Shown: positions 38,916-50,754, counted from the first letter of the stretch. The stretch: DNA of 64,000 nucleotides from a virus (IMGVR_UViG_3300028581_000024:28063-92062), one strand, 5' to 3'. Numbers and translations: made by a program. The notes: generated by a model from the letters alone, not told the origin.

Positions 38916-39512
38916 TTAAGCGTTACTTTGATTATAAAGACTGTTATCTAGAACTCCATGATCTTTAGTACAAACTCGGATCCCGGTTTCATCTTCGTCT
39001 TTATTAATAAGACTATCGTAATTGCGTTCCCGAAAATCTGTAATTAGTTGATGATGTTTCTTTTCTTTCTTAATGCGGCTAATGAACGCATGAAATGCAA
39101 TTGTTGTGAAGTAACTAAACGGGCTAAACCCGTGATCTAATTTAAATTTCTTATATTTTAAGGCTTGGTACATCTTAACTATGGCATCGCCCATCATCTC
39201 ATCACGATAGCTGTAATTAATAAAATTAGGTGCAAAAGATAACCCATACGCTATTCGTCTTATAGCATCAGCCAAGTATTCAGTCATATTATCTGTTTTA
39301 TAAAACTGTCTAATTTCTTCTTCGAACTGCTTACTGTTTACATAGTGCGGTTTTTCAGAAGGCTTTAATTTTCGTTTCTTTCCTTTGGCAGCCCCCTCAC
39401 CGGTAAGAGTTGCTACGACAGAACTAACTATGGCCAGACTAACAGGTAGCTCTACTTCCTCTTGCTTTGCCTTTAAAAGTTTCTGCTTATTTTTTGGTTG
39501 TTTTTTTATCAT
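38916..39512 (-). CDS. gp55: late-transcription sigma factor
   Basis: HYVN, PNFINYSYRDEMMGDA, PFSYFTTIAFHAFISRIKKEKK. Confidence 0.92.
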   Translation of the reverse strand: MIKKQPKNKQKLLKAKQEEVELPVSLAIVSSVVATLTGEGAAKGKKRKLKPSEKPHYVNSKQFEEEIRQFYKTDNMTEYLADAIRRIAYGLSFAPNFINYSYRDEMMGDAIVKMYQALKYKKFKLDHGFSPFSYFTTIAFHAFISRIKKEKKHHQLITDFRERNYDSLINKDEDETGIRVCTKDHGVLDNSLYNQSNA

Positions 39513-42034: not shown

Positions 42035-42265
42035 ATGAAAACGTTTAAAGAATATGTTATGCAAGAGGATAATACTGCCGGTGCAGGCGGGGTCTTCGGC
42101 GACGCACCTAGCATGGGACATGGCGGAGCAGTAGGAAATTCTGATTTTTATGCACCAGATGATATGCGAACACCCAAATTCTTAGGAGCAACGTTAGTCG
42201 GCAAAAAAGGCAAAAAACGGCGTGTGCCTCTTGTACAACGAAGAAGCTTGTTTAAATACTTCTAA
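42035..42265 (+). CDS. small internal-head-like protein
   Basis: starts MKTFKEYVMQE (T4 IP-type); CATAAATA at 41994-42001. Confidence 0.55.
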   Translation: MKTFKEYVMQEDNTAGAGGVFGDAPSMGHGGAVGNSDFYAPDDMRTPKFLGATLVGKKGKKRRVPLVQRRSLFKYF

Positions 42266-42678
42266 TGAATTTTGGCCACTGGGAATTAGCTCCAGGTGTT
42301 ACACCTCAAGAAGGAGCATTTGGGTTCATATATGAAATCTGTAATACAGTAACTAATAAAAAATATATTGGCAAAAAACAATGCATTTCAAAACTTAAAA
42401 GAAAACCTCTCAAGGGACGCAAAAATAAAAGAATAGAGTTAAGAGAATCTGATTGGAAGGTGTATACAGGCTCTTCAAATGAATTAAATGCAGATATAGA
42501 GAAATATGGAAAAGATAAATTCCGTTTTACTATATTACACTTTTGCGGATCTAAATGGGAATTAGGCTATAGAGAAATTAAAGAACAAATACATCGCGAT
42601 GTAATTCTTAGTCAAGAATATTATAATGGCATTCTTAATGTCCGAATTGGTACCCCGCCAAAAGATTTTAAAATTTAA
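42265..42678 (+). CDS. stand-alone GIY-YIG domain protein
   Basis: GFIYEICNTVTNKKYIGKK, YTGSS, E...I, YYN. Confidence 0.75.
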   Translation: MNFGHWELAPGVTPQEGAFGFIYEICNTVTNKKYIGKKQCISKLKRKPLKGRKNKRIELRESDWKVYTGSSNELNADIEKYGKDKFRFTILHFCGSKWELGYREIKEQIHRDVILSQEYYNGILNVRIGTPPKDFKI

Positions 42679-42712
42679 TTGACTGCTATATAAGTTCATC
42701 TATAATATGGGC

Positions 42713-43252
42713 GTGGGTTATATTAAAGACATAAAATCTCTTGATTACAAATTAATTGATATTCAGCGAGCGTTTACTGAGGAAATTGAGCCACACGTAA
42801 CAGAGGATGTATTTAAATATAATCTAGAAAAAAATAACCGATTGCTGAGAAGGTTTATAGTCTATAGGGTTGTAAGTTTTATTTTAGATACATTAGGTAA
42901 TAATGTTAGTTGTGGTAAGAAACTCTTGCTGTTCCTTCCTAAGGAACTACAAGCAGAGCATATAGGTGACAATCGGCTGTTTGTAATTAATTTATTCCGT
43001 AAACTGTCTGCAATTTTATCGCTAAGTATATATGCAGATGATATGGGGTTTATTGAATTTGCAGACCTATTAACAGCAGCAACTGGAGAAGGACGAGAGA
43101 CTAGAGCTAGAGTTAATTTTGTATATGCACGTCATCTCAAGCGACCTGATCTTGTAAAATTAGATAAGTTTTTATTAAAAAACGGAATTCAAAAAATTCA
43201 AGGTGAATTGAATAGTAATTTCAAGGTAAAATTAGGGTTGTTCTTAACATAA
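42713..43252 (+). CDS. hypothetical protein
   Basis: ORF 42707-43252; GTG 42713 lies 6 nt below TTGACT-16-TATAAT. Confidence 0.5.
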   Translation: MGYIKDIKSLDYKLIDIQRAFTEEIEPHVTEDVFKYNLEKNNRLLRRFIVYRVVSFILDTLGNNVSCGKKLLLFLPKELQAEHIGDNRLFVINLFRKLSAILSLSIYADDMGFIEFADLLTAATGEGRETRARVNFVYARHLKRPDLVKLDKFLLKNGIQKIQGELNSNFKVKLGLFLT

Positions 43253-43262
43253 ATATCTTATA

Positions 43263-43625
43263 ATGAAGTTTTTATTACAAATTATTGAAAAGTACAAGAA
43301 ATTAGAAATTGATCCGCCACAATGGGTTATGGAGTATGTATCAAGTATACCTGGCGTGACCCCCTCTACATCTTCAACTCCATCTACCCCTTCAACTTCA
43401 TCTGCTAGTCAAGCACCCAATCTTGGAAAAGTTATTGATGATACTCTCAAGGTACAACAAGACCCTGAACTTGCTAAGAAAAAGCTAGAACTAGATACAA
43501 TTTACAAGCAAGTTGCTGATGCGCTGAAGAAGAAAGCTGAAGAAGCTACTGGCAAATTAAGACAAGCATCAACACAGATTCCTGCTACTACACCAACTGC
43601 TACTACACCAACAACAGTTCCATGA
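43263..43625 (+). CDS. hypothetical late protein, Ser/Thr/Pro-rich
   Basis: CATAAATA 43248-43255; TPSTSSTPSTPST and TTPTATTP repeats. Confidence 0.5.
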   Translation: MKFLLQIIEKYKKLEIDPPQWVMEYVSSIPGVTPSTSSTPSTPSTSSASQAPNLGKVIDDTLKVQQDPELAKKKLELDTIYKQVADALKKKAEEATGKLRQASTQIPATTPTATTPTTVP

Positions 43626-43975
43626 GATTTAACGATCTAATTGCAGCAAAATTCGGTAATTTGCTCGAGCAAACACCTGTACAGCCTGAAATTAATGTAC
43701 CTGCGGCTGAAGCGCCTGTTGCTGCTCCACAAGCAGTCCCCGAGCCTCAAGTAGAGCCGCAGCAACAAAAACCTCTAACTCCTGAGGGTGAAGTCTTTTT
43801 AATTAATCTACTTAGGAAGGCACTATTCATGAACCCTGATGATATAGAGCTTAAGGTCCTAAAGGATTTACCCGATACTGATGAAAAAAATGCATCTGAT
43901 GTGCTTAACAAAATTATTAAGTTGATGCAGATGGATGCTGTTAATTTAGATGTAAATACACAGACCAATACATAA
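43622..43975 (+). CDS. hypothetical late/virion protein
   Basis: ATGA-coupled; starts MRFNDLIAAKFGNLLE. Confidence 0.5.
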   Translation: MRFNDLIAAKFGNLLEQTPVQPEINVPAAEAPVAAPQAVPEPQVEPQQQKPLTPEGEVFLINLLRKALFMNPDDIELKVLKDLPDTDEKNASDVLNKIIKLMQMDAVNLDVNTQTNT

Positions 43976-43979
43976 TAAT

Positions 43980-44510
43980 ATGAATAGGGACAATCATTTA
44001 ATATTTGAAGCATTTATTAACAAACAAAGTGCCACAGGTGTGGACAAACCAGTAGATGCAAGAGATAATAATTCAGAAGATGCAGAACAACCAGTGGACG
44101 GTATTACCAAGCGCAGAGGTGAATTGGCTGGTAACATCATGGACATTGTGAGATACGGTATTCCAAGCAAAGAAGAGTTTATCAAGATCAGACAAGAACT
44201 GCATGACAAAACAAAAGAAATTTCAGACAGAGGCACCCCTGCAACAGAAGAAGAGAGACACCGGGGCAGGCAGTTGATAGGCATGATAAGATCCTACAGA
44301 GCCCAGCACCCCAATGATCCTGGTCCTTATGCAGAGAATGCAGAGAGTTCAGATGAAAGAAAAGAACGAGTGCAAAGGGGATGGGATATAAACAAAAAGA
44401 GATGGGCCAAATGGAAAATGCAGAATCCAGAAGCTGCTGCCAGGCATGCTGCAAAGAAAGCTGCTGGTAAAGAGGAGAATGCAGAAGAAGATAAACATAA
44501 AACGCTATAA
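43980..44510 (+). CDS. hypothetical internal-head-like protein with E(D/N)AE repeats
   Basis: starts MNRDNHLIFEAF; SEDAE, AENAE, EENAE. Confidence 0.5.
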   Translation: MNRDNHLIFEAFINKQSATGVDKPVDARDNNSEDAEQPVDGITKRRGELAGNIMDIVRYGIPSKEEFIKIRQELHDKTKEISDRGTPATEEERHRGRQLIGMIRSYRAQHPNDPGPYAENAESSDERKERVQRGWDINKKRWAKWKMQNPEAAARHAAKKAAGKEENAEEDKHKTL

Positions 44511-44516
44511 AGCTTT

Positions 44517-44524
44517 AATAAATA
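44517..44524 (+). promoter_or_regulatory. late promoter of nuclease-NTase-ligase-like operon
   Basis: AATAAATA 4 nt above GTG 44529. Confidence 0.65.
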
Positions 44525-44528
44525 ATCT

Positions 44529-45773
44529 GTGTCGTATAAGAGTTTAAAAGAAGTATACTCCGAGAATGTTGTGGGTAAACCGGTCCCGCCATTACCTAGA
44601 CAAAGCGTACGCTTGTTTATAAAAGAAGAAGATGAGGCTATAAAAGTCTATAAACAGGAAGCAGATGATCCCGCTACGCTGGAAGGTGAAGTAGATAAAG
44701 AATATTATGATGATGTTATTTCTCCAGCAATAACAAGGGGTGGTAATTATCAATTAGCAAAAATAGTAAAAGAAAGACTAATGAATACTGGTTGTTACAC
44801 CAATAGAAACTACAATTTATTAGTAGACTTCTTACAAACACTTAATATTACATTAACAGAAGAAATCTTCAAAGAGTGTGAAAGACTTTTTTTAAGTAGA
44901 TTAAACCAACCATTTATTTCATTTATAACCGTATTAGCTGAAGCCTTAAATGCTAACGGTCAGAATATCACAGCACAAAGTATTGCTAGCTATCCCGAGA
45001 TTACTGAATTATATGATTTACTAGCAACAGATAAGGCGCCCAGAAAGGATCAGAGTAAAAATGCAGGTCCCGGGGAAGTTTTTATAGCTTTTTTTGCTAA
45101 TGGAAAAAAACTTTCCTCTAGAGATGAAGCTTCATCTAGCGAGGAAACCTCAAAGGGCGATATAATGATAGGCGGGGTTAAGTTAGAGCTTAAAGCCTTG
45201 GACGGTAGATTAGGAATAAAGGAGAGTGGAGTGTATTATAAGAGGCCGAAAGAATATTTTGTAACTGCTCCTGATACACTATTGAACAAGATAAAGTACT
45301 TAGCATTTGGAGATTACAAATATGCAGAAGATGCGTTTAAGCCTTTTGAGTCAGAAGTCAATAGCATTATAGGTGACAGGACTAGTTTGTCGTTTGAGGA
45401 AGGTAGAAATATAGCCGGTGCAATAATTTTAAAAATATATTGTAATAAAAATAGACTAAACTGGTTTCTTGTTGTAGATAAAAGAACATCCTATTTAAAT
45501 TGTGTTCCTGCACAAATAACAGATAATGAATCAATTTCAGAAATTTTAAATAAGATGAAAAATAGATTTTATGTATTGCCTGCTAATGGTGGTGCAAAGG
45601 TATTAATAGGTAAGAGCAAGTCATCTGATGGAATAGCAAAAGCCGCCAAACCAAAACAAGGAAAAATACCAGGAACGCCTGCTTCTTCTACAGTAGTGCC
45701 TGCCCCTATCCCTGCTGTAGCACAAGTTTCACAACCTCAACCTGTACAAGGGACGCCTGATGCTACCGTTTAA
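44529..45773 (+). CDS. putative PD-(D/E)XK nuclease-fold virion protein
   Basis: GPGE...KGDIMIGGVKLELKA (E..D..ExK); AATAAATA 44517-44524. Confidence 0.5.
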   Translation: MSYKSLKEVYSENVVGKPVPPLPRQSVRLFIKEEDEAIKVYKQEADDPATLEGEVDKEYYDDVISPAITRGGNYQLAKIVKERLMNTGCYTNRNYNLLVDFLQTLNITLTEEIFKECERLFLSRLNQPFISFITVLAEALNANGQNITAQSIASYPEITELYDLLATDKAPRKDQSKNAGPGEVFIAFFANGKKLSSRDEASSSEETSKGDIMIGGVKLELKALDGRLGIKESGVYYKRPKEYFVTAPDTLLNKIKYLAFGDYKYAEDAFKPFESEVNSIIGDRTSLSFEEGRNIAGAIILKIYCNKNRLNWFLVVDKRTSYLNCVPAQITDNESISEILNKMKNRFYVLPANGGAKVLIGKSKSSDGIAKAAKPKQGKIPGTPASSTVVPAPIPAVAQVSQPQPVQGTPDATV

Positions 45774-46386
45774 ACAATTCTTAATTGAAGTAACTGGTAC
45801 ATCAATAGGTTTTTTCCCAGGAGCTTTTAAGCCACCACACAAAGGGCATTTTGATACTGCTAAACAAGCGGCTACTGATAACGACATAGCAGTTGTGTTG
45901 ATTTCAGGTTCAGATCGAGATGGTATTACAACAGCAGATTCATATGAGATTTGGAATATGTACAAAGAATATCTTCCAAAAAATGTTTATATACATACTA
46001 TTACTGGGTCTCCTGTGACTGCAATCTATCAGATTGTTGATATATTGAATAATGGTCAATTCTCACCAACGCCAAAAGTCACTAACCCATTGCCTGATGC
46101 TGATAAAATTGCAAAAATGTTACAAGGGTCACCTGCACCCTACACTATAAACCTATATGCAAGTCAAGAGGACTTAGTACGCTTTAATGCCTTTACCGGT
46201 CCTAATAAACAAATTTATGTAGGTAAAAATGTTTCCAAGATCGGTCACGGTAATATTTCTAGACTAGCTTCAGCTACACAGGCAAGAGAGGCCCTAAAAA
46301 ATAAGGAAGAAGCAAAATTCTTTACTTTCTTACCAGATATTGCAATTCAAGGTAAGCAAGAAATTTATAGAAAGCTAGTAAAATGA
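45760..46386 (+). CDS. HxGH (cytidylyltransferase/NMNAT-superfamily) nucleotidyltransferase
   Basis: GFFPGAFKPPHKGH, SATQAR; N-terminus MLPFKQFLIE. Confidence 0.8.
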   Translation: MLPFKQFLIEVTGTSIGFFPGAFKPPHKGHFDTAKQAATDNDIAVVLISGSDRDGITTADSYEIWNMYKEYLPKNVYIHTITGSPVTAIYQIVDILNNGQFSPTPKVTNPLPDADKIAKMLQGSPAPYTINLYASQEDLVRFNAFTGPNKQIYVGKNVSKIGHGNISRLASATQAREALKNKEEAKFFTFLPDIAIQGKQEIYRKLVK

Positions 46387-47738
46387 TTAGGTTTAAGACT
46401 TACATATTATCCGAAAACGAAATTCTTCTCGAAAAAGATACTTACTTTTCGCCACATCTTTCACACTTAGAAGATTTAGCTATAGAAGGTGGGAAAAATG
46501 GATTTAATAGTTTTCTTATACAAGCTACTAACATAATAAACAAATTAAAAGGATTTGAATCCGAGCAAGAGATTAACGCAAAAATTGATGGTGCCCCGTC
46601 AATTTTGTTTGGTGCCGATCCTCGTCCAGAAGCTAATAAACAATTTTTTGTAGCTTTAAAGTATGTAATAGATGAAAGTACTGATACACTTAAAGAAAAT
46701 GCCAAGCTGTTGCATAGTGAGCAAGAAATAGATCAAAACTTTAGTGGTAAGCAAGAGCTTGCAACTAAGCTGAAGAGCTTGCTTTTAAATCTTAAACCAG
46801 CTTATGATAATAGTGGTAAGATCTATCAAGCTGACGTTCTCTTTACATCGTCTGCAGATAAAAGCAGAGTTAGAATAGAGAATGAAGAATATATTGCGTT
46901 TAAACCAAATACAATTATGTATACTGTACCTATTGACGATAAATCGCCGTTGTTTGCTAGTATTAATAGCAGCAATGTTGGTATTATAGTTCATGACTCG
47001 TTCACGGGGGTTATCAGTGACAATGGTAAGAGTATTAAATTAAAACCAGCTGGAAAGAACATATCGTCACTAATTAGTAGCAGCCAGGGTACTAAAGCTT
47101 TTATAAGAGGTAGTAACTACGGTGAGGTGGCTTTTGATATGTCAGACAAGATGGTGCATGATATAGAAAAAACAATTGCTGCAGCCACCAAGCATGTTAA
47201 TAGCATTGATAATAAGTTTGATCAAGAATATGTTTCGTCTGCAAAAGGATCGATGGGCGGACAGATATTACCGCTGTTAAAAATTTATTTAAATAAACAG
47301 GTAGATTTAGAAGATAGTGGAATTTTTGGCGCCGCGAAGACGGGTGCCAAGTTTGATACAGCGCAGTTCTATGAGGGGTTTAAGGCATTCGTTAATGAGC
47401 GTATTAGTAAAGGTATTGAAGAATTAGGCGAGAAAGGCAGAGCAGCAAGAGAACAAAAAATTTCTAGTATAATGGACTTTCTTGATATGCATCGTAAGAG
47501 TTTTGAAAGTTTAATACACGCTACATACGAAATGGTTCGTGTAAAGTTTTTTATACTGCAAATACTTTCCCAGCTGGACACCAGATTAACATCCAATGCC
47601 TTCTATCAGCTACCTGATGGTTCTTATGCAAAAGCTAAAGATGAAGGGTATGTTTTATTTGTTGGTAATAATCAGGTTAAGATAGTAGATCGGGTAGACT
47701 TTACTAGAATGAACCGCCTAATGGGTGGCAGATTTTAA
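46383..47738 (+). CDS. ATP-dependent ligase/capping-fold (KxDG) protein of unknown substrate
   Basis: HLSHLED, KIDGAP (motif I), YQADVLF, DEGYV (IV), KIVDR (V). Confidence 0.6.
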   Translation: MIRFKTYILSENEILLEKDTYFSPHLSHLEDLAIEGGKNGFNSFLIQATNIINKLKGFESEQEINAKIDGAPSILFGADPRPEANKQFFVALKYVIDESTDTLKENAKLLHSEQEIDQNFSGKQELATKLKSLLLNLKPAYDNSGKIYQADVLFTSSADKSRVRIENEEYIAFKPNTIMYTVPIDDKSPLFASINSSNVGIIVHDSFTGVISDNGKSIKLKPAGKNISSLISSSQGTKAFIRGSNYGEVAFDMSDKMVHDIEKTIAAATKHVNSIDNKFDQEYVSSAKGSMGGQILPLLKIYLNKQVDLEDSGIFGAAKTGAKFDTAQFYEGFKAFVNERISKGIEELGEKGRAAREQKISSIMDFLDMHRKSFESLIHATYEMVRVKFFILQILSQLDTRLTSNAFYQLPDGSYAKAKDEGYVLFVGNNQVKIVDRVDFTRMNRLMGGRF

Positions 47739-47739
47739 T

Positions 47740-48288
47740 TTATTTTTCTTTATTTTCTTCGATTGTCTTGATAGCTTCAAGATTAAAAATTGTTTGACGC
47801 AATACTGTCTCAAGAACTTCTTTATTCTCGCCGTGTAGCATATCTCTGATTCTTGAAACAATCTTAAATTCATGTGCGTCGTTATCGGGTGCAAATTCAC
47901 CTTGTTTCTTAAACTTATTATATTCTAAGTAATTTCTTACACCTTCAATATAACTTGCTGCTACTGTAATTTTACTAAAAACCCAGGGTTCGAGATCCTC
48001 ACCATCTTTAATTAAATTGTATAATTGCTTTGAGGCGTTATGCATCTTATAAAGCTCGTTCTTTGCCATATCTGCATCTGTCTCTCCTGTGCCTGCGGTA
48101 GGTGTTTTTTCATCCCAGCCGTCTTCGCAGTCCTCACAAGCTTTATTGTCACTTATCTTTAAGACTGTTGGTGTATTGTTCGATGGAGCCATTGCTGTAG
48201 ATTCTGGCCCAGGTCCAAGGTTTAATTCATTTACAACAACTTCGTTATAAGCTTCAGAAATTTTAATAAGCTCGTTTTTCTTACTCAT
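47740..48288 (-). CDS. hypothetical late/virion protein
   Basis: TATAAATA 48295-48302; MAKNELYK...LEPWVFSKITVAASYI helical module. Confidence 0.55.
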   Translation of the reverse strand: MSKKNELIKISEAYNEVVVNELNLGPGPESTAMAPSNNTPTVLKISDNKACEDCEDGWDEKTPTAGTGETDADMAKNELYKMHNASKQLYNLIKDGEDLEPWVFSKITVAASYIEGVRNYLEYNKFKKQGEFAPDNDAHEFKIVSRIRDMLHGENKEVLETVLRQTIFNLEAIKTIEENKEK

Positions 48289-48318
48289 TTTATATATTTA
48301 TACTACTAAATACTTAAT

Positions 48319-48735
48319 ATGCGTAGTTTTAAAGAATTTTTTTATGAACAAATACTGGGATCGACAGAAGGTATTACTATTCAACATGTTGGAAATGTAC
48401 GAGCTACTGTAGACACAGGCAATAGCGGGTATAACGTTCTACATGCAATAGTATTAAAAGATGCCAAGCCTGGTCATGTAAAGTTTAAAACTATTGGTGA
48501 TAAAGTATTAGAACTTCCCATCAAGGATAGCATCACAGTTTCAGGTAATAATAATGTTAACGATAGAGTTGTTGTTGAACTAGACTGCAGTATTGGTAAA
48601 GAGCAATTCAATAAAACTCCCTTCAGTCTTGCTGATAGAAGTAACCAAGATAATCCTGTTTTACTTTGTAAGGATTTTATTAAGCAAAATGGTGGCGTTG
48701 TTAACGTCAATATTAACAATAACCTTACCTCTTAA
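48319..48735 (+). CDS. retropepsin-like (RimK-associated type) protease
   Basis: ATVDTGN, LHA, R.VV, FSLADRS...PVLL; N-terminus MRSFKEFFYE. Confidence 0.75.
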   Translation: MRSFKEFFYEQILGSTEGITIQHVGNVRATVDTGNSGYNVLHAIVLKDAKPGHVKFKTIGDKVLELPIKDSITVSGNNNVNDRVVVELDCSIGKEQFNKTPFSLADRSNQDNPVLLCKDFIKQNGGVVNVNINNNLTS

Positions 48736-49385
48736 GTTCGATTAGATTGAGAGAACTCTACAAACTTATAAAACTCTGCTCGCGAATTATCATCATTATC
48801 TAGAAATGCACCAGACATTCTAGCAGTACGCATAGTTGAATCATGTCTAATGCCTCTGTTCGAACAACATGTATGAGCTGCCTCAATCATAACTGCAACA
48901 CCATTATTCTTTTCACAAACCTTATCAATATAGGCATGAATTTGCATTGTGAGGTTTTCTTGTACTTGTGGTCTGCGGGCAAACCAATCTACAATTCTAT
49001 TCAACTTGCTTAGTCCAATAACCTTACCACCCGTTGAAGGTATGTAAGCAACATGGGCATGACCGGTAAACGGTGCATGATGATGTGAACACAACGACGT
49101 TAGCTTAATATTATTCTGACATACCATACCATCATAATGGTCAACATTATCGAACGCAGTTACTTTGGGGGGATTACTATAACATCCCCAAGCAAAATCT
49201 TCAACAAACGCTTTCGCAACTCTATGCGGTGTATTAGAACTATTAGGATCATTTCTCCAATCGTATCCTAAAGCATCCATATAGGCTTCATAAGCTTTAG
49301 CAGCGTTTTCTATGATTTGCGCTGTCTCTTCTTTGGTATGTGGGTAGTTATGATTAGCAAAAGCAAACTTGTTCTTATTAGACAT
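48732..49385 (-). CDS. folE: GTP cyclohydrolase I
   Basis: TPHRVAK, SLCSHHHAPF, GLSKLNR, RPQVQENLT, HTCCSNRG; start MSNKNK at 49385. Confidence 0.95.
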   Translation of the reverse strand: MSNKNKFAFANHNYPHTKEETAQIIENAAKAYEAYMDALGYDWRNDPNSSNTPHRVAKAFVEDFAWGCYSNPPKVTAFDNVDHYDGMVCQNNIKLTSLCSHHHAPFTGHAHVAYIPSTGGKVIGLSKLNRIVDWFARRPQVQENLTMQIHAYIDKVCEKNNGVAVMIEAAHTCCSNRGIRHDSTMRTARMSGAFLDNDDNSRAEFYKFVEFSQSNRT

Positions 49386-49431
49386 ATAAGTTATTATAGT
49401 AATAAACTTCATTAATCAAGATAAATAATAT

Positions 49432-50754
49432 ATGCTTTTGAATAAACTTATTGAGAATACACTCAGAAACACTAAGCTCAAGAGAGTTAGAATAAAGGTA
49501 GATCCTTCCGAACTACCAGTTTTTGGATATGAGAATGTAGCTCACTTTGAGGGGTATGTATTGGAGGAATGCGGTACAACTGTAAGTGTATACATAGTAA
49601 ATGTCCCTCCAAATGTTAGCCCCATACAGCAAGTTGGTGCATCTCAAATAGAGCCTGTGGATGAGCCAACAATAAATCCATCCTTTCAGAACTTAAAGCG
49701 AAACCTCCTATCTGCACTTATAAAAGCCGGTCATGGTTCCGAAAGCCCTGTTTATAATCAAATTAAAGCAAGCAATAATCCAGAGTTTATTGAAACGTTC
49801 TTAAAGCAGGCAAGTATCGATCCTGAAGCACTTTTGAATGCCACATTTACAGAGGCAGCTACACTCTCTGCTTCAAATGCACAACCCACAGAAACACAAG
49901 GTGATGATTTAGATGAAATTTTTGGTCGTAAGCAAAGTAGGGCTAGAAGTATCCTTAAAAGTCTAGAAAATGGTGGCACTATATCCAAGGGCATAGGCAT
50001 GGTAGCTTCAGCAATTGACACTGCTTCTGAGCTGGCTCTAGGTAAGCGCAATATAGTTGCGCGTCTCTCCTCATTCTTAAAAACCTTAAACGTTCAAGAT
50101 CTTATAGATCTTAAGTCCTTGAAGCTACGTTCAAACGAATACTCACATATACCATATAAAGGTAATACTGTATACTTTACAGGTCTTCCTAAGTTGTCGT
50201 ACAATCAGGGACCTGTAAATTATCAGTTAAAAGGTAGTGTTGCTTCTGCTAATTATTCTGCAGAAGGTATCAAATATATTGTTTCAGACATTAACCCGAG
50301 CTATCCAAAGCTAGACAAAATAATGTTAGACTTTTCGGTGCTTGACAACCCACGTAAAACAGGTAAAGCTATCTTTATTATTGATGGGCAAAAGCGATAT
50401 AGTACCGCACAAATAACATTAACTGAGGATATCTGGTTTGTAAAAATACTCAAATATAATGTGGCAGATAAAACTCCGGAGAGTAGCAAAGGCTTAATAC
50501 ATGCTGTGCGTGCAAAGCGTCTCTTGAAGGATCTATTAGAAGGGTCATATCAAGAAGCTGAGAAGTTACCACAATTTAGTGATATTCTTATGGGATTTGC
50601 ACAAGATCTTAAGGGGTACGATAAATCAAAACTGGCTGATGTGATTGCTTTTTTCGAAGAATTGAAGAAAGAACCTGATTTTGCCGGAAAATCTGTTGCT
50701 GAAAAACTAAATAAATTGAAGGTTGTAATAAAAATAATAAAAGAGGAAATATAA
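49432..50754 (+). CDS. hypothetical late/virion protein
   Basis: GATAAATA 49420-49427; 440 aa. Confidence 0.55.
   Translation: MLLNKLIENTLRNTKLKRVRIKVDPSELPVFGYENVAHFEGYVLEECGTTVSVYIVNVPPNVSPIQQVGASQIEPVDEPTINPSFQNLKRNLLSALIKAGHGSESPVYNQIKASNNPEFIETFLKQASIDPEALLNATFTEAATLSASNAQPTETQGDDLDEIFGRKQSRARSILKSLENGGTISKGIGMVASAIDTASELALGKRNIVARLSSFLKTLNVQDLIDLKSLKLRSNEYSHIPYKGNTVYFTGLPKLSYNQGPVNYQLKGSVASANYSAEGIKYIVSDINPSYPKLDKIMLDFSVLDNPRKTGKAIFIIDGQKRYSTAQITLTEDIWFVKILKYNVADKTPESSKGLIHAVRAKRLLKDLLEGSYQEAEKLPQFSDILMGFAQDLKGYDKSKLADVIAFFEELKKEPDFAGKSVAEKLNKLKVVIKIIKEEI

Follow-up and report, generated by a model that had tools for sequence, protein, structure and literature searches.

A 64,000-nucleotide stretch of DNA from an uncultured virus (IMGVR_UViG_3300028581_000024:28063-92062; hereafter the window, with positions counted from its first nucleotide) carries, at positions 44517 to 47738 of its plus strand, an operon of three overlapping open reading frames (ORFs) behind a T4-type late-promoter-like motif. 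We read this operon, with the odds modestly in favor, as a late, translationally coupled module of three enzymes for the cutting and re-joining of nucleic acid, of which ORF2 and ORF3 would be loaded into the phage head in this lineage. ORF1 (44529..45773, 414 aa, GTG start) is a probable PD-(D/E)XK nuclease. ORF2 (45760..46386, 208 aa) is an HxGH (HIGH) nucleotidyltransferase (NTase) resembling nicotinamide mononucleotide (NMN) adenylyltransferases (NMNATs). ORF3 (46383..47738, 451 aa) is a DUF6267 protein, a putative covalent nucleotidyltransferase with an RNA-ligase fold and an inserted helical domain. The strongest comparative result is the coupling of the ORF2 and ORF3 families, which are neighbors or even fused in related phages.

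An earlier note, made from this DNA alone, had described one late promoter followed by three overlapping ORFs, and this arrangement held up in full. The motif AATAAATA lies at 44517..44524, 4 nt upstream of the GTG start of ORF1 at 44529; ORF1 ends at 45773, giving a 14-nt overlap with ORF2, which starts at 45760, and ORF2 ends at 46386, so that it shares an ATGA with ORF3, which starts at 46383. All coordinates below are on the plus strand unless stated otherwise.

ORF3 and the predicted ligase fold of DUF6267

ORF3 is a clear member of the Pfam family DUF6267 (PF19782; 171.9 bits against a cut-off of 27, E 3.4e-50, residues 25-444), a match that was reproduced on the genome record, and also belongs to PHROG 455; both families are without an assigned function. 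A literature search returned no papers on DUF6267 and none for "cytitidyltransferase", the label that its partner carries in several phage genomes.

The AlphaFold2 (AF2) model of ORF3 has a predicted local distance difference test score (pLDDT) of 89.7 and a predicted template modeling score (pTM) of 0.85. It was compared with 48,161 chains using VIA-align, a procedure that is independent of Foldseek. The best match was the RNA ligase NgrRnl (5cot; Z 9.4, 186 residues aligned, root-mean-square deviation 3.8), followed by REL1 (Z 8.4), T4 Rnl2 (Z 8.4 and 8.2), Trl1 (Z 7.5), and T4 Rnl1 (Z 7.2), while DNA ligases scored Z 6-7.3 and capping enzymes Z 5.2-5.9. Almost all of the top 30 rows were RNA ligases, DNA ligases, or capping enzymes. 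The alignments with ligases stretch over residues 21-447, yet only 170-200 residues are aligned. Weaker matches in a viral library carry an RNA ligase annotation, and a language-model protein atlas gave a weak RNA_ligase lead (score 0.75).

The earlier note had listed the motifs KIDG, YQAD, EGYV, and KIVDR as those of a covalent nucleotidyltransferase; we find all four in that order, with their key residues invariant in 35 sequences of 35-65% identity. The invariant residues of this alignment are K67, D69, G70, Q149, D151, F173, P175, and H204 and, toward the C terminus, E421, G422, V424, K433, V435, D436, and R437. The candidate motif I, K67-I-D-G (46581..46592), contains the candidate nucleotidyl-lysine, which is conserved in 35 of 35 sequences and sits at the end of a strand in the model. 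Candidates for motifs III and IIIa (YQADVLF and FKPN; 46824..46910) and for motifs IV and V (EGYVLF and VKIVDR; 47643..47693) follow in the right order, with D151, F173, E421-G422, and K433 as their putative key residues, assigned by motif. Profile alignment with hhalign pairs K67, weakly (E 0.0015-0.27), with the lysine of the EKYDGS/EKVDGS motif of Pfam RNA_ligase-type neighbors.

Between motifs IIIa and IV, the model contains an all-helical insertion (approximately residues 255-395, 47145..47567, delimited by DSSP of the model). This is the only extra module; the model has no OB domain, and its secondary structure stops soon after motif V. Because a helical accessory module takes the place of the OB domain, ORF3 appears closer to RNA ligases than to DNA ligases or capping enzymes. 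Compared with NgrRnl (Rnl5, 5cot), REL1 (1xdn), and T4 Rnl2 (1s68/2hvq), ORF3 has the same nucleotidyltransferase-domain fold (171-197 residues aligned), the same succession of a KxDG motif and acidic, aromatic, EG, and K motifs, and likewise a helical module without an OB fold. It differs from these enzymes in that sequence similarity is not detectable, in that its helical module sits between motifs IIIa and IV instead of being appended, in its pairing or fusion with an HxGH NTase, in its head-targeting-like N-terminal peptide, and in its motif V, K-I-V-D-R. The usual motif V of the ligase family is K-x-K, whereas VKIVDR of ORF3 has one lysine. ORF3 gave no match to the Pfam RNA_ligase family PF09414 at E up to 0.1. 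Taken together, the model and the motifs support the assignment of ORF3 as a divergent member of the ATP-dependent polynucleotide-ligase superfamily, nearest in shape to nick-sealing RNA ligases, with predicted catalytic activity.

ORF2 is an HxGH nucleotidyltransferase

The nucleotide-binding signature of ORF2, PGAFKPPHKGH (residues 20-30, 45817..45849), which had led the earlier note to call it an HxGH nucleotidyltransferase, is accompanied by the second motif of the superfamily, SRLASATQAR (46258..46287), which is of the ISxTxxR type. Both are conserved. In 20 sequences of the family, F19 to H30 are invariant except for K28, which is conserved in at least 90%, and R176 is nearly invariant. 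ORF2 itself scores 20.7 bits against Pfam PF01467, just below the cut-off of 21, and 22 of 24 family members match PF01467.

Searched against the Protein Data Bank (PDB), the family profile found the NMN adenylyltransferase 2qjt first (E 2.9e-7), then phosphopantetheine adenylyltransferase (PPAT), archaeal NMNAT, and NadR. Across the solved NMNAT and PPAT structures, E values ranged from 2.9e-7 to 1e-3, with PPAT and TagD-type enzymes close behind the NMNATs. With the NMN adenylyltransferases of the NadM, NadR, and archaeal types (2qjt, 1f9a, 6gye), which are the best matches of the profile (E 2.9e-7 to 2e-5), ORF2 shares both the GxFxPxHxGH and the S-x-T-x-x-R motif. In contrast to these enzymes, it is linked to a ligase-fold gene and not to genes of nicotinamide adenine dinucleotide (NAD) salvage, and the matches lie mainly within the first 40-130 residues. 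Based on its motifs and profile matches, ORF2 is thus an HxGH nucleotidyltransferase nearest to the NMN adenylyltransferases, with NMN or NaMN as candidate acceptors.

Linkage and fusion of the ORF2 and ORF3 families

The neighborhood of DUF6267 was surveyed in 80 IMG/VR loci, taken from at least 521 positive contigs. Of these 80 loci, 49 have an HxGH NTase that is part of the same protein as DUF6267 or lies within three genes of it, and a further 13 are cut off downstream. In proteins of about 625 aa, DUF6267 is fused with an ORF2-like domain, and ORF2 matches the C-terminal domain of such DUF6267-NTase fusions with 31% identity (E 2e-20). Fusions occur in both orders among the 80 loci, three with DUF6267 first and three with the NTase first. 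The co-occurrence of the genes, by which the earlier note had proposed to judge its prediction along with the fold and the conserved lysine of ORF3, is thus found in relatives and extends to fusion; the ORF3 model and alignment bear out the other two points.

Cultured phages show the same association. The DUF6267 homolog of S-PM2 is a 591-aa fusion; P-TIM40, P-HM2, and Stenotrophomonas phage DLP_6 carry the pair, annotated as "hypothetical" and "cytitidyltransferase"; and in Pelagibacter phage HTVC008M, an unannotated HxGH protein is encoded two genes downstream of DUF6267. The nearest cultured relatives of the ORF3 protein itself, at 24-28% identity, are found in cyanomyoviruses, HTVC008M, and Methylophilales phage Melnitz.

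In HTVC008M (L002:6398-8188), Melnitz (L105:5083-7035), and DLP_6 (L104:5224-7392), the HxGH NTase has a length of 596-722 aa, and in the first two of these phages it also bears a DUF5824 domain (E 1e-18). In three loci (L049, L080, L101), adenylate-kinase-like P-loop proteins with tag-like N termini (e.g., MKRFKSYIKEE) are encoded just after DUF6267, which hints at recycling of adenosine monophosphate (AMP) beside a ligase.

ORF1 is a probable PD-(D/E)XK nuclease

ORF1 had no Pfam or PHROG match, and an exhaustive profile search recovered only 23 relatives. Their alignment bears out the E..D..ExK signature that the earlier note had seen in the single sequence: in 21 sequences with identities down to 18%, E183 (in G-x-G-E), K194, G210-D211, and E220-x-K222 are among the invariant residues. 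In ORF1, this catalytic-type block, GPGE(183)...KGD(211)...E(220)-L-K(222), is encoded at 45066..45194. In the AF2 model (pLDDT 78), the invariant set is placed on helix 183-189 and strands 192-194, 212-214, and 217-223, that is, on a helix followed by three strands, the alpha-beta-beta-beta core of PD-(D/E)XK enzymes. Both structure searches had the restriction endonucleases MspI and HhaI (Z 3.9) and HinP1I (Z 3.3) as their top matches, all of them weak (Foldseek E 0.02). With these Type II restriction endonucleases, ORF1 has in common the E...D...ExK set on a helix and three strands; it differs from them in its large helical N-terminal half, in having no methyltransferase partner, and in its disordered Pro/Gln/Ser-rich C-terminal tail (residues 363-414). 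Based on its motifs, ORF1 is therefore probably a PD-(D/E)XK nuclease, a fold assignment for which the structural matches are weak. At the position of the GTG start, the eight closest homologs have methionine (five of eight) or valine (three of eight), and conservation sets in at Tyr3.

Several relatives of ORF1 stand beside ligase-like genes. The next gene is DUF6267 in six loci (L005, L015, L016, L018, L019, and L021). In two others (L013 and L014), the ORF1-family gene precedes one whose 834-aa product contains a Pfam RNA_ligase domain (PF09414, E 1.2e-7, EKYDGS). L012 has, in order, an ORF1-family nuclease, a small protein with a G-S...D-I-D motif, a weak RNA-ligase match, and an HxGH NTase, and in L017, the ORF1-family gene precedes a KIDG-bearing domain fused to PF01467. 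That a canonical RNA ligase can replace DUF6267 beside an ORF1-family nuclease supports a ligase role for DUF6267.

The 834-aa proteins (L013:7222-9726 and L014:6164-8671) start with MINFKTYF and consist of an N-terminal segment with G-S...G-D-I-D-L-D, the RNA_ligase domain, and a helical tail. The segments of L012 and L013 can be called "Pol-beta-like" from their G-S...D-x-D motif only; neither these segments nor the ligase-like N-terminal segment of L017 matched any Pfam family, RlaP included.

Previous work has shown that RNA ligases of large phages associate with accessory nucleotidyltransferases and nucleases (PMC7824862). The operon can be set beside two such arrangements of a phage ligase with accessory end-processing enzymes, the T4 tRNA-repair pathway of Rnl1 and polynucleotide kinase and the jumbo-phage sets with the Pol-beta NTase RlaP and HNH-Rnl2 fusions (PMC7824862). 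The loci related to the operon, with an ORF1-family nuclease, a Pol-beta-motif segment, and an RNA_ligase-type domain, resemble the jumbo-phage sets. The operon itself is unlike both in that it has no kinase or phosphatase and in that its HxGH NTase partner is outside any described RNA-repair set.

ORF1 showed no BLAST similarity to the genes upstream of DUF6267 in cyanophages and the pelagiphage. A second family occupies this position in 15 loci, comprising the P-HM2 gene (L003:2520-4010) and 14 IMG/VR loci (e.g., L054:3649-4962). Its members have 380-500 aa, mostly lie directly upstream of DUF6267, have no Pfam match, and share the invariant set W-x-P-x-D-I ... N ... S-L-K ... N, from which they may be nucleases of a PD...SxK type. 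Its profile, compared with that of the ORF1 family by hhalign, gave a probability of 1.7%, so that a relation between the two families is not demonstrable.

In six further loci (L006-L011, genes at approximately 500-1650), the ORF1 homologs have 377 aa and a basic N terminus and lie directly upstream of, and overlap, the gene for the large terminase. Some of these terminase genes carry a LAGLIDADG homing-endonuclease or intein-like insert (PF14528).

N-terminal peptides resembling head-targeting signals

In T4, the first ten residues of internal protein IPIII suffice for head targeting, and the propeptide has 10-19 residues; residues 4 and 7 serve targeting, residues 8 and 10 serve processing, and gp21 cuts after L/I-x-E (PMC9026906). 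ORF2 starts with the decapeptide MLPFKQFLIE (45760..45789), which, with F4, F7, L8, and E10, fits all four key positions. The N-terminal extension of ORF3, MIRFKTYILSE...ILLE (46383..46433), is a capsid-targeting-like helix with a low-confidence linker; it has F4, Y7, and I8 and two h-x-E sites, L-S-E11 and L-L-E17. F4 and E17 of ORF3 are at least 90% conserved, and the pLDDT of the model is below 50 at residues 15-17.

A start of the form M-x-x-[FY]-[KRQ]-x-[FYH]-h-x(1-3)-E occurs in 4 of the 101 genes of the record, against an expectation of 0.023, and the four genes (starting at 42035, 45760, 46383, and 48319) all fall within 42035-48735. Since ORF2 and ORF3 start inside the operon, the pattern is not an artifact of the spacing between promoter and start codon. 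Positions 4 and 7 are both aromatic in 104 of 120 DUF6267 relatives and 66 of 71 NTase relatives; an h-x-E site falls within residues 6-20 in 117 of the former and 57 of the latter. In many lineages, the peptide appears as an add-on of about ten residues that ends in Glu and directly precedes the conserved core. The record also encodes a gp21-type head protease (Peptidase_S77, E 1.2e-37, G000:C1:3296-3745).

As in T4 IPI-III and Alt, positions 4 and 7 of the ORF2 and ORF3 peptides are aromatic, position 8 is aliphatic, and Glu stands at position 10 or 11; also as in T4, the peptide stands on otherwise unrelated proteins that are clustered in one region, in a phage with a gp21-type protease gene. 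Unlike the T4 proteins, the cargo here would be predicted nucleic-acid enzymes of 20-50 kDa, and one member of the operon, ORF1, is off the pattern. Because the peptides are built like the T4 capsid-targeting sequence, ORF2 and ORF3 are probably loaded into the prohead, and their packaging is a well-founded hypothesis.

The gene at 42035-42265 encodes a 76-aa Gly-rich protein with a basic C terminus and the start MKTFKEYVMQE; no other start in the window comes as close to the T4 internal-protein tag. The gene also leads the corresponding cluster in the relatives L005 and L013-L019, and its product is a candidate internal head protein. The gene at 48319-48735 encodes a 138-aa protein that starts with MRSFKEFFYE and has a borderline match to PF05618, the retropepsin-like "Zn_protease" family (26.5 against 27 bits); its homologs in L013-L016 also begin with a tag-like peptide.

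Proposed function of the module and alternative explanations

The reading we prefer, that of a late cut-and-rejoin module with head-loaded ORF2 and ORF3, would work as follows. PD-(D/E)XK nucleases leave 5'-phosphate and 3'-OH ends, and ORF1 would cut so as to leave such ends for the ligase. ORF3 would form a Lys67-nucleoside monophosphate adduct, pass the nucleotide to a 5'-phosphate end, and join that end to a 3'-OH. ORF2 would most plausibly make or recycle the adenylyl donor of the ligase or handle compounds of the A(5')pp(5')N type. After loading into the prohead and trimming by the gp21-type protease, ORF2 and ORF3 would probably enter the cell together with the DNA. During infection, such a module would most likely repair or process RNA that is broken or nucleic acid that is nicked, either as a counter-defense or as housekeeping.

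A number of observations weigh against this reading. Regarding ORF3, neither the sequence alone nor its profile gave a relevant match when searched against all PDB chains, so that no solved ligase is linked to it by sequence; Foldseek against the PDB gave nothing at E <0.001, RNA ligases appearing only as weak matches; and the assignment of K67 as the catalytic lysine, which draws on the motif, the position in the model, and the weak hhalign pairing, is only weakly supported. The fold matches of ORF1 do not exceed Z 3.9. ORF1-family genes lie near DUF6267 in only 5 of the 80 DUF6267-centered loci, and in the six loci L006-L011, several of which are near-identical, they adjoin the large terminase instead. 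The operon encodes no end-healing kinase or phosphatase, an enzyme that classical tRNA repair requires when the RNases are metal-independent. P-loop kinases, as candidates for this partner, are present in just 6 of 90 loci and absent from this window. The lack of end-healing enzymes also fits a ligase acting on the 5'-phosphate and 3'-OH ends left by a PD-(D/E)XK nuclease. As for head loading, the earlier note had ascribed a capsid-targeting-like peptide to all three proteins, and the sequence pattern upholds this for ORF2 and ORF3 and fails for ORF1, the N terminus of which (MSYKSLKEVYSE) has K4 and K7; only 3 of 31 ORF1-family proteins have the two aromatic residues. Finally, DUF6267 of cyanophages has no N-terminal tag and starts at the H-L-x-H-L-E-D core block, which implies that packaging is not intrinsic to the module.

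The alternative that survives best keeps the same enzymology but takes the N-terminal peptides to be a structural or translational feature, so that the enzymes would be active solely within the infected cell and at a late stage. The untagged cyanophage DUF6267 favors this explanation, for it shows that the enzyme works without the peptide, as do the deviating N terminus of ORF1 and the annotation of P-HM2, in which DUF6267 is not labeled as a virion protein, whereas a nearby gene is. It accounts poorly for a ten-residue add-on that precedes the core in many lineages and matches T4 positions 4, 7, 8, and 10, for the recurrence of this peptide on the unrelated products of four genes, including internal coupled cistrons, and for the presence of a gp21 homolog. 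We regard it as possible but rather improbable.

A second alternative places the module in DNA replication and packaging, with DUF6267 as the nick-sealing DNA ligase, in the role of gp30, that seems to be missing from marine T4-like phages and ORF1 as a branch or junction nuclease similar to gp49, both acting on phage DNA in the cytoplasm. The gene inventories of relatives lend it some weight. The complete genomes of P-TIM40, HTVC008M, and P-HM2 contain neither an ATP-dependent (PF01068) nor a NAD-dependent (PF01653) DNA ligase, and the same two types are lacking in Melnitz; a review states that some marine T4-like cyanophages lack gp30, Rnh, and gp49 (PMC2993671). In addition, the module neighbors genes of recombination and replication (UvsW and UvsY in this window; uvsX and gp41 in cyanophages), and ORF1 relatives are found directly upstream of the large terminase in L006-L011. 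Against it, DLP_6 carries a canonical DNA ligase (PF01068, E 2.5e-15) together with DUF6267, and on this account we downgraded the idea that DUF6267 is a simple replacement for a DNA ligase. The best structural matches of ORF3 are RNA and not DNA ligases, though by a margin of only 1-2 Z units; the ORF3 model has no OB domain, and RNA_ligase-family domains displace DUF6267 in relatives; and a late promoter and a head-targeting tag would be odd for a replicative ligase. Overall, this explanation is unlikely.

The same features bear on the substrate. Because RNA ligases rank first, the OB domain is missing, and RNA_ligase domains displace DUF6267, we lean toward RNA, or mixed nick sealing, as the predicted substrate of the modeled enzyme. 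The P-TIM40, HTVC008M, and P-HM2 genomes also contain no PF09414 RNA ligase, which, like their lack of a DNA ligase, counts in favor of DNA housekeeping.

The least probable alternative, that DUF6267 is not a ligase but performs non-canonical 5' capping or AMPylation of proteins or small molecules while the NMNAT-like enzyme rebuilds NAD+ against NAD-depleting defenses, can draw on the nearness of the ORF2 family to NMN adenylyltransferases (phage NMNATs are known in NAD salvage; PMC7824862), on the occurrence of the same fold in capping enzymes and the cap-binding snurportin (Z 5-6), and on the unusual helical insertion and motif V of DUF6267, and it is very unlikely given that capping enzymes score well below RNA ligases, that relatives place a bona fide RNA_ligase domain at the position of DUF6267, that the operon lacks the nicotinamide phosphoribosyltransferase or Nudix partner typical of NAD salvage, and that a nuclease partner is better suited to nucleic-acid ends.

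The cut-and-rejoin reading can be taken further. ORF2 and ORF3, perhaps together with ORF1, could form a capsid-borne cut-and-seal kit, ejected with the genome, in which the NMNAT-like enzyme supplies or regenerates the adenylyl donor for a ligase of a new family, so that the sealing of broken nucleic acid of phage or host would be independent of host ATP and NAD at entry. We consider this extension quite doubtful; if it were true, DUF6267 would be the first polynucleotide ligase delivered in a capsid and the first ligase to have a partner dedicated to its cofactor supply. In a similar vein, if the tag truly loads enzymes, the T4 "internal protein" strategy would reach beyond small inhibitors and Alt and take in enzymes of nucleic-acid repair.

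DUF6267 is very common in T4-like phages of the ocean, being present in at least 521 IMG/VR contigs as well as in cyanophages, pelagiphages, and methylophilales phages. Several of the phages with DUF6267 have no recognizable ligase. Its recognition as a ligase-fold enzyme with an intact catalytic set would account for a function long missing from the known genes of abundant marine viruses, and the near-obligatory coupling to an NMNAT-like enzyme points to an undescribed ligation chemistry or form of cofactor handling.

Genomic setting and the late-promoter motif

The source record is a 92-kb fragment, estimated to be approximately 43% complete, of an uncultured T4-like myophage from the ocean. 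The operon closes a plus-strand gene cluster that spans 42035-47738. On the minus strand upstream of the operon lie genes for gp46/gp47-like SbcCD, a gp55-like late sigma factor (38916-39512), a methyltransferase, the UvsW helicase, and UvsY.

The window holds 27 ATAAATA motifs, and 18 of them stand on the coding strand no more than 25 nt upstream of a called start, in zones that add up to 1.6% of the sequence; the most frequent gap between motif and start codon is 4 nt. ATAAATA is therefore a positional signal and not a chance word. This placement and the gp55 homolog in the window support reading the motif, by homology, as a T4-type late promoter. Scans for sigma-70 promoters and terminators in the operon region showed no excess over the shuffled expectation.

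The 18 gene starts with ATAAATA include those at 2074, 16324, 19117, 44529, 49432, 53548, and 55156, the motif usually ending exactly 4 nt before the start codon. No Shine-Dalgarno sequence lies between the motif and the start codon, and GTG is the start codon in 4 of the 10 genes with a 4-nt gap. T4 late transcription starts at a usual distance from the motif; if this distance applies here, many late mRNAs would have little or no leader.

Several other genes near the operon were noted. The gene at 42265-42678 encodes a 137-aa protein that matches PHROGs named "NAD synthetase" (phrog_447, E 1e-30) and "homing endonuclease"; the former label looks doubtful. A gene for GTP cyclohydrolase I (PF01227, E 1.5e-48) at 48732-49412 on the minus strand adjoins the plus-strand gene at 49432-50754, whose 440-aa product matches GmrSD_N/DUF262 weakly (E 9e-4, under the cut-off).

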